DNA of 64,000 nt from the NCBI GenBank assembly GCA_963706285.1, contig CAVPLU010000003.1:1-64000 (forward strand), in the 5' to 3' direction. Positions 23,814-63,535 of this stretch are shown piece by piece. The notes below the pieces were generated by a model. The model did no database searches. It was not told where the DNA came from and worked only from the letters and a program-made list of their open reading frames with translations. This DNA is from Candidatus Bathyarchaeota archaeon. GTDB lineage: Archaea > Thermoproteota > Bathyarchaeia > 40CM-2-53-6. Numbering within the stretch: the first letter of the stretch is position 1; each line of letters starts with the position of its first letter. The position numbers were made by a program, and so were the translations under genes.

Positions 23814-23852
23814 GGTTCAAATTGGATGCCCGCACCAAGTGTACCGCTACCA
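23814..23852 (+). repeat. Modular site, first copy
   Basis: GGTTCAAATTGGATGCC-CGCACCAAGTGTAC-CGCTACC; core 23831-23844. Confidence 0.8.
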
Positions 23853-26278
23853 CGAGTAGCGATCGAGAATAGTCTGCGTAATGCGGTTTCTGGCGAGGGC
23901 TTCTTGGCTGATGTTTGCGGATCACAATTCCGAAAGCGTGGATATCACTGCGACGTGCATCGACTAGCAGTGACCGATGACCGAGAGCGTGTTGACCTGT
24001 GTTCACGGTGGAACTGCATGAGACCAGAGGTTGAGATGTGCGTCATCTCGGATATACTTAGAAGCATCGAACGCGTACGCGTCTAGACTCTGGCACGATG
24101 CCAAGACTAACGCAGATCCGAGAACATGGCCAAAGATTGAGGTATTGCAGAAACTCGTATGAGATTGGAGCTTGTATTCATCGGCAGATGTATATGACGG
24201 ATCGACGAATGCAGTAGGACTCGGAGTAACCTCTGGCTCAGAATCTACGACGGCCTGCATCTTGCCAAGGCAGTGATCTATGCAGACGATAGGATACAAT
24301 CACTGTTCGAACGTGAAGCTCCACGTGCTTCGATGCTTGCGAGTCTGGTCAATTGGCACCGATCGTTCGAATGGACCTTCGGAAGAGCTCGCAAGGCTAC
24401 GGGATCATCCCTCGTCATGGGAGCTCCGAGACAGAGTTCGCGTAGATCGCACGAACGCGAGGATTTCACAAGCATGATGAAGTACCAAAGATGCAGGTGC
24501 CTCGCAACGGCGCGACCTGACCTTCAAGGAGCTGATCTAGATGCGTCGGCTATGAAGACGATATTGGCAAGGAGATTGATGGTGAACCGCCAGCCTTGGC
24601 TCATACTGGAAGTCAGCGACAGGATTCCCGGGATCTGAGGTCGGCAGTCTCGGAGAAAACGTGCAACACAGTCGTGATATGTAGCCTCAGATTTGAACCA
24701 GAGTTTCGAAGCGAAGTCAGGATTTAGGAGTTCTGATGCAACCAACTTGACTCACAGGGCACGAGCTAACCGAACTCGCCACAGCTAGACAAGGCATCAT
24801 GCACAGGTGAAGCTACGGTTCGTCCTCGATTGCGGCATTCTACAGATCTCTGAGCAGTTGTACTGCTCTGTTGTTCATTCAACGATGAGTCCAGGTTCGA
24901 GCTGATCGCTGTTGGATGCTGTCTCAACTATGCGACAGGAGGACATTCCAAGTTCGTCATGATCGCACGAAGCATCTATGCCATTAGTGCCAATGCGTAA
25001 TCCCAGAATGACGCTATGGAAGCGAGTCTGGAACGAGGTTCTGTTTACGCATGCAGCGGCCTATGTCGAAAGTCTTGAGACACGCTTCGAGGTAAGTGGA
25101 TCTCTCTCCACTTCATCTCAGTGCTCACGGCAGTTCACGTCAGCGGTCATCCAGGGCTGCGCATCTCAAGTTGTTCTGACTGACGACGGAATAGGGAGAC
25201 GCCACTGACAAGCCCAGGAGCGATCAAATCTGGAACAACCCGGCGTAGACCGCATCAATTGCTCAACCGTCAACAGCCAAGCAATTCCCCACGTCATGCA
25301 AGATGACTATCTATGACGCCGAATGACTAGTCAGACTGGAGCCAGTACGGTGCATGAGCAGAGGTCGCTCGGGTTGCTCCTCGTCTTGGTTCCATGACTG
25401 AACCTTGACCTATCGCATGGCAGCAAACTGCGCAGTTTCCACGACCAACCAGCTGGGGGACTTGCGGAGCACACGAATGCTGAGCCCGTTGAGACGAACC
25501 TTACTTGGACTAACCGTCGCAATCTCGCAAGATGGCGGCATACTACGTCGCGACGATGGGGTTAACGAGCGTGTAGCCTTCCGAGCTGATGAGCCCGACG
25601 ACAGTCATCGAATGGCGTTTCATGATAGACGTACAAGAATCGTCAACGACAAAGTCCTTGCAGGACGCAAATCAGCATGAGTGATACGAACGTCGGCGAT
25701 ACGAGTTACATGATGCAGACGAATCTGCGTCGTCAGTGTACCAAGGCTGCCTTCCGCAATGAAACTTAGACACGCACGGTAAACGTACTGCAGATCGCGT
25801 CCAGTGTAACCGGCGACGAGTTCAGTTGGCATATTGCACCTTCAAGCATTGGAGGATCAAGACGGCGTTTTGATCTCGAGGTACTTGAACGGATTTATGG
25901 GCACCAGGGTCTCCTGAGTACGTGCTTAATGTTCGACAGATTCCTGAAAGAAACTACACGTTGGAGGCGCCGTGCACCTATGTTCCGGAATATCTGTCCC
26001 CAAGGCGCCATTTTGCTTACGCATCAGGTCGCAAGCATCATGAATGCGTTTTAGGACGCTGACTTCGAGTCAAGGTCCTCCTACAGCCAAAGGAACTTGA
26101 ACTGGCAGTTCAGATCTGTGACCGCGCGAATTTACCGACGACGAACCTCTTATACGGACTGGAACTCTTGCCCAACCAGCTGACCACCGACTGAACCAGC
26201 CGTCTAGGGTCCGCTTCGGATCATCTGTAGTTTGCAGTTGCGCAGACCACGCTTCAGAAGCCCTCGAAGACGTTTATG

Positions 26279-28435
26279 CTACGATCGGGCGAGGTCGAAC
26301 CGGTCAAGGTTCATTACCTTGTTCCACACCGCTACAAAGTCGTGCACGAACTTCTCCATGGAGTCCTCACATGCGTAGACTTCCGCCAAGGCCCGGAGTT
26401 GGGAGTTCGAACCGAAGATGAGGTCGACACGGGTGCCGGTCCACTTGAGTTTGCCCGTTGCGCGATCACGACCCTCGAACACGTCTTTGTCTTCCGAGCT
26501 TGCATTCCAGGTCGTGCTCATGTCGAGCAGGTTCACGAAGAAGTCGTTCGTCAGCGTCCCGGGGCGCTTGGTGAAGACGCCGTGCTGGGACTGTCCGAAA
26601 TTGGTATTCAGGACTCGCAGGCCGCCAATGAGAACCGTCATCTCAGGCGCCGTCAGCGTCAGCAATTGCGCCCGGTCGACCAGCAGTTCTTCGGCCGATA
26701 CAGAGAATTTGGTCTTGAGGTAGTTGCGGAACCCATCCGCGATCGGCTCGAGCACGGCGAAGGAGGCCGCATCGGTTTGCTCCTGCGAGGCGTCCATGCG
26801 TCCCGGCGTGAAGGGAACCGTCACCTCGTGACCAGCATTCTTCGCAGCCTGCTCGACGCCGGCGCAACCGGCCAGAACGATCAGGTCAGCCAGTGATACC
26901 TTCTTGCCGCCGGACTGCGCGCTGTTGAACGCGCTCTGGATGCCCTCCAAGGTCTTGAGCACCTTCGCTAGCTGGGCAGGCTGGTTGACTTCCCAATCCT
27001 TCTGCGGCGCCAGACGAATGCGGGCACCGTTGGCACCACCGCGCTTGTCGGAGCCACGGAAGGTGGACGCCGACGCCCAGGCGGTCGAAATCAGCTCCGA
27101 CACTGACAGGCCAGAAGCCAGGATCTTGCCCTTGAGGGAGGCGATGTCCTGTGCATCAATCAGTTTGTGATTGACGGCAGGGATGGGGTCTTGCCAGATG
27201 AGCTCTTCTGCTGGAACCTCCGGTCCGAGATAGCGCGTGCGCGGGCCCATGTCGCGGTGCGTCAGCTTGAACCACGCCCGGGCGAACGCGTCCGCAAACT
27301 GATCCGGATTTTCCATGAAGCGCCGTGAAATCCTTTCGTAGACAGGGTCGAACCGCAAAGCGAGGTCCGTGGTCAGCATGGATGGCGCGTGACGCTTTGA
27401 CGGGTCGTGCGCATCCGGCACAGTACCGGCGCCTGCGCCACCCTTCGGCTTCCACTGGTGCGCACCGGCCGGGCTCTTCGTCAGTTCCCATTCGTAGCCG
27501 AACAGGTTCCGGAAGAAGTTGTCGCTCCACTTCGTTGGCGTCGGGGTCCAGATGACTTCCAGGCCGCTGGTGATCGTATCACCGCCTTTGCCCGTGCCAA
27601 ATTTGCTCTTCCAGCCGAGACCTTGTTCCTCGATGGGGGCGGCTTCAGGCTCGGGGCCTACGAGTGACGCATCGCCAGCGCCATGGGTTTTGCCGAAGGT
27701 GTGACCGCCAGCAATCAGCGCGACGGTTTCCTCGTCGTTCATCGCCATACGCGCGAATGTCTCGCGGATGTCCTTGGCAGCAGCAAGCGGATCCGGATTA
27801 CGGTTCGGCCCTTCCGGGTTCACGTAAATCAAGCCCATCTGCACAGCAGCGAGAGGGTTTTCTAGTTCCCGGTCACCAGAGTAGCGCTTGTCGTCAAGCC
27901 ACTTGCTCTCGGTCCCCCAGTAAATGTCCTCTTGGGGCTCCCAGACATCTTCGCGCCCTCCGCCGAAACCGAAGGTCTTGAAACCCATCGATTCCAAGGC
28001 GACGTTGCCGGTGAGGATCATCAGGTCGGCCCAGGAAATCTTCCGGCCGTATTTCTGCTTGATCGGCCAGAGCAGCCGGCGCGCCTTGTCGAGGTTCGCA
28101 TTGTCGGGCCAGCTGTTGAGGGGCGCAAAGCGCTGGCTGCCGGACCCTGCGCCTCCGCGGCCATCGCCCATGCGGTAGGTGCCCGCGCTGTGCCACGCCA
28201 TTCGGATGAAGAGCGGTCCGTAGTGGCCGAAGTCCGCCGGCCACCAGTCCTGCGACTTCGTCATCAGTTCACGGAGGTCCTTCTTCACGGCCTCCAAGTC
28301 GAGACTCTTGAACTCTTTAGCGTAGTTGAAATCCTCGCCCATCGGATTGGACTTGGAGGAATTCTGGTGCAGGATATCAAGCTTCAACTGGTTCGGCCAC
28401 CAGTCTCGGTTCGTCGTGCCGCTTTTCTTATCCAA
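26279..28435 (-). CDS. katG: Catalase-peroxidase
   Basis: [38 protein letters not shown]; 718 aa two-domain. Confidence 0.97.
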
Positions 28436-28546
28436 ATAACAACCCCCACTTGATCAAACGACGCCGTTGTCAGGCAATATTAGAATTGTGCCAGATAGAT
28501 ACGAGAGCTAGGAGTGAGAGATGAATTGGTGAGCTCGCTAATTCTT

Positions 28547-62624: not shown

Positions 62625-62717
62625 TGTGTTTTGCCTACAGCATCCTATTGACAATCTTGCGCTTGAATTCGGGTGAACCAACTGTTAAATAGGTTTGGAC
62701 TGGTCACCGTGTTTGAC

Positions 62718-63410
62718 ATGAGCAAGGTATCTGATTCTGAGAAATACATTGCAGAGTTCATCGGCACATTTGTACTGGTTTTCATGGGCTGTGGGAGCGC
62801 TGTAATTGCTGGCAAATTCATAGGCTTCATGGGAATCGCGTTCGCCTTTGGCCTCTCAGTCCTTGTGATGGTTTATGCCATTGGAGGCATTTCCGGATGC
62901 CACATAAATCCCGCCATCTCGATATCGATGCTCGCTTCCGGAAAGATGAAACTGCAGGACACGGTGATCTATGTAGTAGTGCAGTGCATGGGTGCCGTGG
63001 TTGCTGCGGCGTTACTGTACTCAATCGCTATCGGGAATCCGGGATACAGTCTCGCCGTCAATGGTTTGGGTCAGAATGGGTACGGAGAAGCCTCGCCTGG
63101 CGGATTCTCTATGAGTTCCGGATTCATTGCGGAAGTTGTTCTGACGTTCATATTCCTGCTCGTGATCTATGGCTCGACCAGCGAGAGAGCCCCCAAGGGC
63201 TTCGCGGGCCTTTCGATAGGCTTGAGTCTGGTTCTTATCCACCTAGTTGGGATACCGATAACGGGCACATCTGTTAACCCTGCGAGAAGTCTCGGCCCGG
63301 CGATTATGGTCGGAGGTGCTGCTCTGAATCAGCTGTGGCTGTTTTGGGTTGCCCCGATCATCGGAGGGCTTCTCGCCTCATTGGTCTGGCGCATTCTCGA
63401 ATCAAAATGA
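62718..63410 (+). CDS. aqpZ: Aquaporin Z (MIP family)
   Basis: AEFIGTF, SGCHINPAIS, GTSVNPARS, LWLFWVAP. Confidence 0.93.
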   Translation: MSKVSDSEKYIAEFIGTFVLVFMGCGSAVIAGKFIGFMGIAFAFGLSVLVMVYAIGGISGCHINPAISISMLASGKMKLQDTVIYVVVQCMGAVVAAALLYSIAIGNPGYSLAVNGLGQNGYGEASPGGFSMSSGFIAEVVLTFIFLLVIYGSTSERAPKGFAGLSIGLSLVLIHLVGIPITGTSVNPARSLGPAIMVGGAALNQLWLFWVAPIIGGLLASLVWRILESK

Positions 63411-63506
63411 GAAAGCACGAGACCTGAAGCGTACTTGAAATCCCATCAATCTCCATGGGTTGCTCTACTTCGTGCAGCCTCGGTGATCTGAATCGTCGTT
63501 CTGTCG

Positions 63507-63535
63507 ATTTGTGTGTAGGTCACATGTGCGGAGGT
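63507..63535 (-). repeat. Modular site (core 63517-63530)
   Basis: rc CGCACATGTGACCT-ACACACAAAT. Confidence 0.6.

Follow-up and report, generated by a model that had tools for sequence, protein, structure and literature searches.

Which process has placed copies of one short sequence unit in the long gaps between genes behind a tRNA gene of an uncultured archaeon? The locus in question is a window of 64,000 nucleotides (nt), corresponding to positions 1 to 64,000 of contig CAVPLU010000003.1 (assembly GCA_963706285.1, Candidatus Bathyarchaeota archaeon), in which an earlier note, made from the letters alone, described about 40 recombination-like sites punctuating a 40-kb accessory region and proposed a new gene-cassette system akin to Xer/pdif modules. 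The reading favoured here, with a probability of roughly 80%, is that the sites are footprints of casposon-type integration, mediated by Cas1-family enzymes (casposases), into a variable island.

The genome, referred to as G000, is assembled to 2.13 Mb in 21 contigs with 51% GC (guanine plus cytosine), and is 89% complete and 7.5% contaminated. The window forms the first 64 kb of its 217-kb contig C3, while other G numbers denote genomes of relatives and L numbers denote collected loci.

Anatomy and Distribution of the Repeat Unit

When the listed sites are brought into one orientation a common unit emerges, consisting of (CGA)CGACGG-TTCAAAT-N5-TGCC, then CGCACCAAG-NN-TAC, then CACACAC. A logo of 251 copies, drawn from this and other genomes, delimits a conserved span of 42 nt, GGTTCAAATT-nGGnTGCC-CGCACCA-n6-CC-CACACACA, between unconserved flanks, with TCAAATT at positions -15 to -9 relative to the start of the core. 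The spacing from the T-loop-like GGTTCAAAT to CCA (7 + 5 + 7 + 1 + CCA) is the same as in the tRNA 3' ends of the genome, whose real tRNA genes encode CCA, one example ending in ...CTCCCGC-A-CCA. On the best reading of these sequences, the upstream part (arm P of the earlier note) would be a leader, the core a target duplication, and arms B, B' and P' the ends of inserted elements. Folding of the unit into a minihelix or T arm was considered and dropped, as the bases beside the T-loop motif are, by eye, not complementary.

A 9-mer taken alone is insignificant, with 20 window matches at up to one mismatch against 15.6 expected; 8-mers of the unit top the genome's list for intergenic enrichment. 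A first hidden Markov model (HMM), seeded from the earlier note's own site list and therefore a circular test, recovers 24 of the 31 listed cores at E<=1. The refined HMM, obtained by three rounds over the whole genome at E<=1, gives 22 matches in 23.8-64 kb, of which 18 are listed sites and 4 are extra (41022, 44222, 49319, 51649), and the sites at 28554 and 51593 were recovered by a regular-expression (regex) scan. Those at 39671, 43441, 52187 and 63517 are weak, and 41131 is a core without arms. The motif described earlier holds up, nearly all of the 31 cores, each of which was printed, being CGCACCA-like with the described arms, and all four arm combinations being present; the count of about 40 does not, as the credible window sites number about 25-30.

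Across the genome, the refined HMM gives 81 matches, 75 of them intergenic by rough gene calls, and 64 of the 81 fall in 10 of 114 bins of 20 kb. On C3, all 24 matches lie within 23.8-66 kb. Of the gaps of at least 100 bp, 16 of 33 in 23.7-66.6 kb hold an element, compared with none of the 8 before that (1-23.7 kb) and none of the 81 on the remaining contig, hence 0 of 89 outside the island. The earlier statements that the sites recur in long gaps beyond the tRNA and are missing from the 23-kb housekeeping block (no HMM match below 23.8 kb) are thereby borne out, and the even spread among core genes that had been named beforehand as refuting is not seen, the sites being confined to islands. 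In relatives, a loose form of the pattern finds 1-3 true tRNAs per genome and is multi-copy in some genomes only. A global pattern scan found the repeat almost exclusively in records whose titles name Candidatus Bathyarchaeia or Bathyarchaeota. The strict pattern is also matched by a few contigs of bacterial bins (L080, L043, L044, L059, L116 and L123), of which L080, with 5 units, is probably a mis-binned Bathyarchaeia contig.

The position of the units relative to genes bears on a regulatory role. A promoter or operator, with TTCAAAT as a TATA-like box ca. 26 nt before the CA start, or a small-RNA gene serving the island genes, would explain why TTCAAAT stands at TATA-to-start distance from the CACACAC run. 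However, the units show no positional peak near gene starts or ends, their four orientations relative to flanking genes are about equally common (22, 19, 16, 16), and the tRNA promoters of the genome use another box, cTTTAwgt with a gaaA B recognition element. With no fixed distance or orientation to genes and with differing tRNA promoters, such a role is extremely improbable; furthermore, katG has its own AT-rich box nearer its start, and short tandem leader-core-terminus units recur at 48-61 bp with nothing between them. A terminator was likewise dropped, given the absence of a peak near gene ends and of any orientation bias.

Target Duplications and Leader Polarity

Duplication of the core was assessed over G000 and ca. 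125 loci, using same-orientation site pairs up to 12 kb apart. Identical 14-mer cores occur in 23 of 1,068 such pairs; when cores were shuffled among sites 500 times, the mean was 3.0 and no shuffle exceeded 9. These pairs are polar: in 20 of the 23 the left copy has the leader (compared with 31% of all sites), in 14 a GTGTG-type sequence precedes the right copy, and in 13 the enclosed DNA ends in CACAC...GTGTG, compared with 16% of unrelated pairs. At L009 and L027 three identical cores stand in series behind one leader, and at C10 139806 and 140790 two cores identical at 13 of 14 positions enclose ends of the type CGACGACG...CGTCGTCG. Both end types have C as the next base beyond the core, so that the length of the duplication may be either 14 or 15 bp. 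The arm combinations behave as junctions of inserted and resident DNA, as would suit the earlier proposal of mobile modules.

Within the window, the clearest examples are two inserts with their duplications, listed here together with the first site and the neighbouring ketol-acid reductoisomerase (KARI)-like block (evidence in brackets; flanks denotes printed flanks, ORF an open reading frame).

23813..23844, + strand: first site, leader GGTTCAAATTGGATGCC and core CGCACCAAGTGTAC, no insert terminus after it (flanks, HMM, regex).
29592..30976, + strand: KARI-like gene block, core to core (Pfam KARI_C and KARI_N; 96% identity to G001:C335:1282-2657).
30944..30975, + strand: leader and core CGCACCAGCTGACC (30962-30975), left copy of the 14-bp duplication (flanks, identical-core pair, regex).
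30976..32596, + strand: 1,621-bp insert starting CACACACAATTC and ending GGTGGTGGTG, with a DUF4256 gene, an unassigned ORF and the internal site 31879 (identical 14-mer flanks; Pfam).
31866..31902, + strand: GTGTGTGTG, core CGCACCAAGGGTAC (31879-31892), CACACACAC, read as a junction of two inserts (flanks, HMM, regex).
32587..32622, + strand: GGTGGTG, core CGCACCAGCTGACC (32597-32610), CGACGACGAACA, right duplication copy plus second-type terminus (flanks, core pair, regex).
44476..44503, - strand: GGGTGTG and core CGCACCAGCCTACC (44483-44496), right duplication copy as read on this strand (flanks, one-mismatch pair, regex).
44497..45584, - strand: insert of 1,088 bp containing a hemerythrin-domain gene (44579-45214) as well as the weak internal site 45307 (Pfam Hemerythrin; cores 13/14 identical, leader on the 45585 copy).
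45575..45617, - strand: leader GCAGTTCAAACTCCACTGCC, core CGCACCAGCCTACT (45585-45598), CATACAC, left duplication copy (flanks, HMM, pair).

Comparison With Relatives

The closest relative, G001, is ca. 94-96% identical in shared DNA and shows the order tRNA, first unit, DNA placed on C16 in G000, KARI-like block, and part of the rhomboid region, with homology to G000 starting and stopping at units. At the first site, the homology switch falls inside the site itself, its G001 ortholog being followed by the module found on C16 in G000, and at the KARI-like block the flanks of the two genomes diverge on both sides exactly at sites. The homology of the isochorismatase-gene module to G001 stops at 51592, while that of the CMD-family gene module to another Bathyarchaeia contig stops at 39066, 5 nt from the site at 39028..39061. 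After the KARI-like gene, G001 has leader-CGTACCAGCTGACC-CGACGACG, where CGTACCAGCTGACC is one base off CGCACCAGCTGACC, and no insert; G000 has leader-CGCACCAGCTGACC-CACACAC...(1,621 bp)...GGTGGTG-CGCACCAGCTGACC-CGACGACG. Hence G000 holds one extra insert, flanked by cores, between the leader and the older neighbour. Modules that differ in presence and order between close relatives, with breakpoints at or in the sites, are in line with the earlier note and are what the comparison gives.

At the protein level, the blocks matching C3 3-23 kb and 73-86 kb sit ca. 8 kb apart around the same tRNA in G008, of the same genus, with no G000 island gene there; the island keeps its place beside the tRNA and varies in content. 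A 16-kb contig of another Bathyarchaeia metagenome-assembled genome is pieced together from modules that match genes on six different G000 contigs at 65-87% identity, with units between the modules. A classical tRNA-integrated island was dropped as an explanation, there being no copy of the 3' part of the tRNA-Gly elsewhere on C3. Five genomes of the same genus were too diverged for synteny to be used at the DNA level. Among sequencing runs none contained more than 0.20 of the sampled words and no RNA run was listed. Logan contigs of four runs were compared over 26000-45999; their joints at the sites, with sides of 21-41 letters matching at 88%, stem from repeats or from short contigs belonging to other organisms, so neither these joints nor the uncovered parts are used as evidence.

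Cas1 Genes and the 9-kb Elements

In G000, a search with PF01867 brought up two C-terminal fragments, both weak; in G009 it brought up an intact gene, located on a unit-bearing contig. The window itself has no match to PF01867, nor to PF00589 or PF01797, in agreement with the earlier statement that no recombinase lies there. The G009 Cas1 scores 161 bits with TIGR00287, has no cas neighbours and matched no subtype model. Its best solved relative is 6opm_A (218 bits, residues 4-364), presumably the structure of the Methanosarcina mazei casposase, followed at 81 bits by the next-best Cas1, a CRISPR Cas1. The accession 6OPM occurs in the text of the M. mazei casposase structure paper.

Cas1 homologues are present among 117 element loci as full-length genes in 3 and as fragments in 5 more. 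Two elements of about 9 kb, each flanked by target-site duplications (TSD), carry such a gene (lengths in amino acids, aa).

G145 (L156): leader, CGCACCAAGGTACC, (CA)n, 9.4 kb with a 406-aa Cas1 (PF01867, 188 bits), (TG)n, CGCACCAAGGTACC; terminal inverted repeats (TIR) (CA)nAAAA ... TTTTC(TG)n.
G121 (L157): leader (TCAAATC at -15 to -9), CTCACCAGCTAAAG, CGACGACG, 9 kb with a 402-aa Cas1 (PF01867, 168 bits), CGTCGTCG, CTCACCAGCTAAAG; TIR CGACGACGACGA ... TCGTCGTCGTCG.

The two end types of these elements explain both kinds of arm distinguished in the earlier note. In G000, the core at C4:177716 and its right flank (GGGGATATAG) equal those around the G145 element (L156 4139-4152 and 13559-13584), without an occupant. 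The surrounding sequence at C4 ca. 177,696-177,740 reads leader, TGCACCAAGGTACC, GGGGATATAGGT, apparently an unoccupied target. Other genes of the two elements include a SIR2-like one (SIR2_2) beside an ATPase_2/HTH protein, DUF4365 and DUF5677. This cargo is partly defence-like, and conserved ORFs of ca. 220-250 aa, of no known family, flank the Cas1 gene on each side.

Of 201 genomes of the class, 10 have at least two non-tRNA copies of the strict pattern, and 9 of these have the Cas1 family (at least 40% identity), compared with 9 of the 191 others; the 10 site-rich genomes come from 4 families, and related genomes are not independent. Pieces comprising only the C-terminal part of the casposase, in open frames of 108-199 aa, also occur in G004, G008, G009, G001 and G113. 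A repeat of ca. 1 kb has three copies in G000 (C10:48372-49389, C14:88924-89602 and C9:1-933), in which unrelated upstream sequence is joined to roughly the last third of the casposase (residues from ca. 241 on).

The Cas1-bearing elements also bear on the Xer/pdif-like mechanism suggested earlier, in which a conservative tyrosine recombinase (Xer- or integrase-like) would exchange circular B-core-B' cassettes with chromosomal P-core-P' sites. An arrangement P-core-B' ... B-core-P' with an identical core is also the product of attP x attB exchange, the B-core-B' arms are inverted around an asymmetric centre, and tRNA 3' ends are classic integrase targets. Yet no tyrosine recombinase or integrase is encoded in the two TSD-flanked elements, which hold Cas1 instead, and PF00589 has no match in G000 (89% complete). 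Over 41 relatives, the distribution of tyrosine recombinases does not follow that of the elements (there is none in G004, with 20 pattern matches, nor in G034, with 16), which leaves the suggested co-occurring recombinase unsupported. The duplicated 14 bp are variable in sequence and polar, the leader motif lies at the exact casposase distance, and site orientation along the island is mixed. Exchange by a tyrosine recombinase is, on this evidence, very improbable.

Likeness to Casposons

Casposons are described as rare, large, polymerase-encoding elements, present in one to few copies per genome, with family B polymerase (PolB) as a defining gene. In the published accounts, the minimal target of Aciduliprofundum boonei comprises a TSD segment of 15 bp together with the neighbouring 18 bp from the TψC loop of tRNA-Pro (PMC5137440), the casposase target carries TCAAATC 9-15 bp upstream of the insertion site with a TSD of 14-15 bp, five 3'-terminal TIR nucleotides sufficing for the enzyme (PMC6614799), and M. 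mazei has a 14-bp TSD with a conserved 5'-CGCA that overlaps the tRNA-Leu 3' end (PMC6977970). The leader described above, with TCAAAT(T/C) at -15 to -9, and the 14-bp CGCA segment have the same architecture as the published casposase target. The present system and the family 2 casposons (A. boonei, M. mazei) share a target of tRNA 3'-end type with TCAAAT(C/T) 9-15 bp upstream of the cut, a 14(-15)-bp TSD starting with CGCA, and ends set by short terminal nucleotides; in addition, the Cas1-family integrase is nearest to 6opm_A among solved chains. Of the features by which casposons are recognised, TIR, a TSD of 14-15 bp and the family 2 target type (TCAAATC 9-15 bp upstream, CGCA start) are all present, and Cas1 lies inside the element in G145 and G121, whereas the window and G000 hold fragments only and PolB is not seen in the element.

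The differences from family 2 are also considerable. No PolB was detected in the two complete elements, the targets are mostly intergenic tRNA-like pseudo-sites rather than tRNA genes, sites number in the tens per genome (81 HMM matches in G000), many inserts measure 0.3-4 kb and carry ordinary genes without a transposase, and two end families use one target type. Tandem casposons with a common TSD, and solo TIRs, are known from Methanosarcina (PMC4779613), where remnant ends likewise stand beside CGCA-bearing target sequence; there, two elements occur per locus, whereas many-module arrays extend here over ca. 40 kb, with several islands per genome. At G034:C4:11714-11749, AGGTACC-CACAC comes after a T arm of true tRNA type (GTTCAAATCCCGGTGGCC GCACCA); this may represent insertion at a real tRNA gene and would then hint at the ancestral target.

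A mechanism can be proposed along these lines. The leader would be an 18-bp mimic of the tRNA TψC loop and acceptor 3' strand (GGTTCAAAT-N5-TGCC), placing the casposase motif TCAAAT(T/C) 9-15 bp upstream of the cut, and the target would be the 14 bp starting CGCA(CCA), duplicated at each insertion. Insert ends would belong to two inverted-repeat families, CACACAC...GTGTGTG (arms B' and B) and CGACGACG...CGTCGTCG (arm P' and its inverse). If new inserts enter beside the leader, arrays would grow as leader-TSD-insert-TSD-insert-TSD. Most window inserts, which appear to be ordinary cargo without a transposase, would then have been moved in trans, or be relics, and the short repeated sites could serve as substrates for secondary rearrangement by which modules are shuffled between islands. 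Site anatomy, the polar identical cores, the insertion difference from G001 and the casposase elements with the same ends elsewhere can be read off the DNA itself, while casposase catalysis, mobilisation in trans and any present activity in G000 are what we infer.

Several observations weigh against casposon-type integration, beginning with the fact that all the evidence is non-experimental. Pfam searches (E<=0.01) found no polymerase family among the 18 ORFs of at least 110 aa in the two 9-kb elements, nor any polymerase beside the Cas1 genes of L150, L078, L066 and L100. G000 (89% complete, 7.5% contaminated) holds C-terminal casposase fragments only and no intact gene, which leaves current activity there unproven; G002 has 9 strict sites and no casposase match at 1e-8, and G023 has 8 loose-pattern matches (tRNAs not filtered) and no casposase match either. 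As regards the duplications, a leader-core-CACAC pattern served to gather the 117 outside loci, so that left copies of this kind are over-represented. Identical cores also occur in 9 of 984 inverted pairs, more often than the direct-pair shuffle would suggest, and the majority of sites lack an identical partner. The tandem units of 48-61 bp do not fit simple insertion. Furthermore, some conserved blocks, such as the ilvC-like one, end in a leader instead of an inverted terminus, one G000/G001 breakpoint lies inside a leader, and the Cas1 gene of L078 has no identical flanking cores, although these were sought. The last three points suggest that ordinary recombination between repeats also takes place, and it probably adds to the shuffling of modules.

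Taken further, that thought leads to an alternative in which the units are a selfish or structural repeat, like repetitive extragenic palindromic (REP) sequences or miniature inverted-repeat transposable elements, with no link to Cas1, the shuffling being due to homologous or illegitimate recombination between dispersed copies. Head-to-head pairs and tandem units do recall BIME/REPIN arrangements; the breakpoint inside the conserved leader and the random orientation relative to neighbouring genes also speak for it, as does the restriction of Y1 transposase genes, among 41 genomes, to the genus that bears the elements. Nevertheless, G000 has no Y1 transposase (PF01797), no elements lie near the Y1 loci of G009 and G004, and a Y1 HUH transposase flanked by palindromic repeats, as in REP/RAYT systems, is not what is found. 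The sites are confined to islands instead of being spread over the genome, simple repeat recombination does not predict identical, variable core halves around inserts with leader polarity, and the intact Cas1 elements have the same ends and duplications. This alternative is considered improbable, and casposon-type integration is retained as the favoured account.

Comparison With Other Modular Systems

With CRISPR/Cas1-Cas2 the sites share a leader adjoining a repeat that is duplicated at each integration, a Cas1-family integrase, and leader-proximal new insertions, as seen in the G000/G001 difference and in the serial identical cores. They differ in that the repeats are 14-42 bp long and diverging, spaced from 48 bp to several kb and in both orientations, the "spacers" range from ca. 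35 nt to 9 kb and carry genes, and neither Cas2 nor effector genes were seen next to the sites; the cas genes, uniform short spacers and near-identical 25-40-bp repeats of a CRISPR array are not what the island shows. Integrons likewise consist of modules of one to few genes with short bounding sites, shuffled between genomes; here there is neither integrase nor attI, orientation is mixed, and duplicated targets take the place of folded attC hairpins; an IntI recombinase with attI, and attC sites in one orientation, are not what is seen (no PF00589 match in G000, mixed site orientation). The difference from both integrons and CRISPR noted earlier is upheld. The pdif/Xer modules also have short sites around small modules in either orientation, and B-core-B' can be parsed as 11-6-11; G000, in contrast, has no Xer-type recombinase, and a 14-bp duplication with leader polarity is not an Xer feature, nor one expected from conservative exchange in the 6-8-bp centre of a 28-bp Xer-bound site.

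The proposal of a new gene-cassette system therefore survives in one part, mobile modules at sites, but not as a categorically new system, since the architecture is that of the known casposase target, with Cas1 in TSD-flanked elements. What would be new relative to casposons, on the best reading, is that a polymerase is lacking, that copies are numerous, that cargo inserts are of gene size and that the arrays are polarised by a leader. A literature search, which did not extend to subscription journals and supplements, found nothing on Bathyarchaeia casposons or on polymerase-less or miniature casposons.

By analogy, the island arrangement resembles a primitive CRISPR array. A wider proposal, advanced tentatively and as somewhat doubtful, is that, in a casposon lineage of Bathyarchaeia without polymerase, the tRNA-like target has become an array that propagates itself and is polarised by its leader. 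Each integration by a Cas1-family casposase would add a 14-bp repeat and a segment, be it a small remnant, one host gene or an element of 9 kb, and the islands would be a gene-capture platform and a living analogue of the intermediate proposed to link casposon transposition with CRISPR spacer acquisition. The same integration chemistry seems to give tens of sites per genome, small cargo inserts and leader-polar arrays in Bathyarchaeia of soil and peat, the inserts including an oxygen-defence gene (hemerythrin-domain) in an island that also contains katG and flavodiiron genes. If true, this would provide a mechanism for building flexible islands in an abundant, uncultured archaeal class, would mean that casposases can mobilise non-autonomous gene cassettes, and would offer natural material on how leader-plus-repeat arrays arise from a casposon target, a long-standing question tied to the origin of CRISPR.

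Further Sites and Modules of the Window

The remaining sites and modules are as follows, with evidence in brackets as above.

28547..28587, - strand: core CGCACCAAGGGACC (28554-28567), then CACCACC, with TTTTCGTCGTCG before (flanks, regex).
28588..28629, + strand: leader, degenerate core CGCGCTAAATGTAC (28606-28619), CACACAC (flanks, HMM).
29543..29585, - strand: leader, core CGCACCACTGATAC (29553-29566), CACGCAC (flanks, HMM, regex).
29586..29616, + strand: GTGTGTT, core CGCACCAAGCTACC (29594-29607), CACACGC, head-to-head with the preceding site (flanks, HMM, regex).
32634..32740, + strand: two tandem degenerate units with a 61-bp period, each with leader, core CACGCTAAGCGTAC or CGACCCAATTGTAC, and CGACGACG (flanks, HMM).
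34491..34573, both strands: head-to-head pair, 34502-34515 (-: leader, TGCGCCACTAGAGG, CACACAC) and 34550-34563 (+: GTGTGTA, CGCACCAAGGTACC) (flanks, HMM, regex).
37580..37648, + strand: two adjacent weak sites, one at 37589 and one with leader-like GATTCAAAT and core CGCGCCAAGTCTAC at 37627-37640 (flanks, HMM, regex).
39028..39061, - strand: GTGTGTG, core CGCACCATTAGCCC (39039-39052), CACACAC (flanks, HMM, regex).
40971..41001, - strand: GGTGGTG, core CGCACCATTAAACC (40980-40993), CACACAC (flanks, HMM, regex).
41131..41144, + strand: bare core CGCACCAAGGTACC, left junction of the duplicated aldehyde-dehydrogenase segment (flanks).
41146..43462, + strand: 2.3-kb aldehyde dehydrogenase segment with two genomic copies (93% identity to C10:54848-52527; Pfam Aldedh).
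43423..43463, + strand: leader GGTTCAAACTGGTCGCC, core CGCACAGAGCATAA (43441-43454), CCACACAC (flanks).
47488..47522, - strand: GGTGGTG, core CGCACTAAGCTACA (47497-47510), CACACGC (flanks, HMM, regex).
49270..49355, both strands: head-to-head pair, 49280-49293 (-: GTGTGTG, CACGCCACGGTACC, CACACAC) and 49339-49352 (+: leader, TGCACCAGACTCAC) (flanks, HMM, regex).
51586..51683, - strand: leader, core CGCACGAGTGATAC (51593-51606), CACATAG, with a second weak unit at 51649-51683 (flanks, HMM, regex).
54985..55017, + strand: TTTGTG, core CACACCAAGAGAAT (54997-55010), CACACAC (flanks, HMM, regex).
60212..60310, + strand: two weak units, leader and CACGCGAAATGTGC at 60231, CTCAAAT and TGCACCGCGGTACC at 60294 (flanks, HMM).
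61903..61937, + strand: CTGTGTG, core TGCATCAAGCGATC (61913-61926), CACACAC (flanks, HMM).
63510..63535, - strand: weak site, core CGCACATGTGACCT, then ACACACA (flanks only; missed by the HMM at E<=1).

The right end of the aldehyde-dehydrogenase segment is the exact end of a leader-core-CACACAC unit, and its left end is arbitrary, lying in the C10 copy inside a reading frame that runs across the boundary and is, by eye only, EamA/DMT-transporter-like.

Gene Content and Setting of the Island

Operons for ilv/leu and aromatic amino-acid synthesis lie in 1-23 kb of the window, and the island of 23.8-64 kb, which starts just beyond the following tRNA gene, consists of ordinary single genes with long gaps between them.

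23655..23760, + strand: intron-containing tRNA gene (Rfam RF00005, 52.8 bits); the island starts 54 nt beyond.

This tRNA is kept at 94-96% in G004 and G008, and apart from it Rfam gave nothing on the window. ARAGORN at default settings missed it, tRNAs being found here only with introns allowed; with introns, ARAGORN makes 26 calls genome-wide, most of them intron-bearing and some with odd intron positions or doubtful anticodons. By Pfam, the island genes comprise katG, the KARI-like gene, rhomboid, aldehyde dehydrogenase, MFS, SDR, CorA and a flavodiiron protein, as well as GT4, aquaporin, cupin, CMD, flavodoxin and isochorismatase. The differing base composition noted earlier for some modules is evident in katG (26279-28435), with a GC content of 0.60 compared with ca. 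0.51 in the genome, as would fit a foreign origin. The TTG at 28435 is apparently its true start, its own AT-rich box lying ca. 45-55 nt upstream.

Some minor observations concern events away from the units. In G001, positions 1600-6873 of L144 (C227) form a 5.3-kb insertion relative to G000 C3:107938-107948, flanked by an 11-bp overlap of G000 sequence, with no units near. It carries a flavodiiron gene 93% identical to window 53617-54878 and looks like a different kind of mobile event. Dihydroxy-acid dehydratase is apparently split into two ORFs (9899-10444 and 10500-11591), the second matching from profile position 168; as the pieces are adjacent in G006 and G008 too, the split is probably not an assembly error. 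At G000 C10:46682-47612 (L154 6682-7612), 3-dehydroquinate synthase II consists of two overlapping ORFs, covering profile positions 61-216 and 217-343, and is a frameshift or pseudogene.

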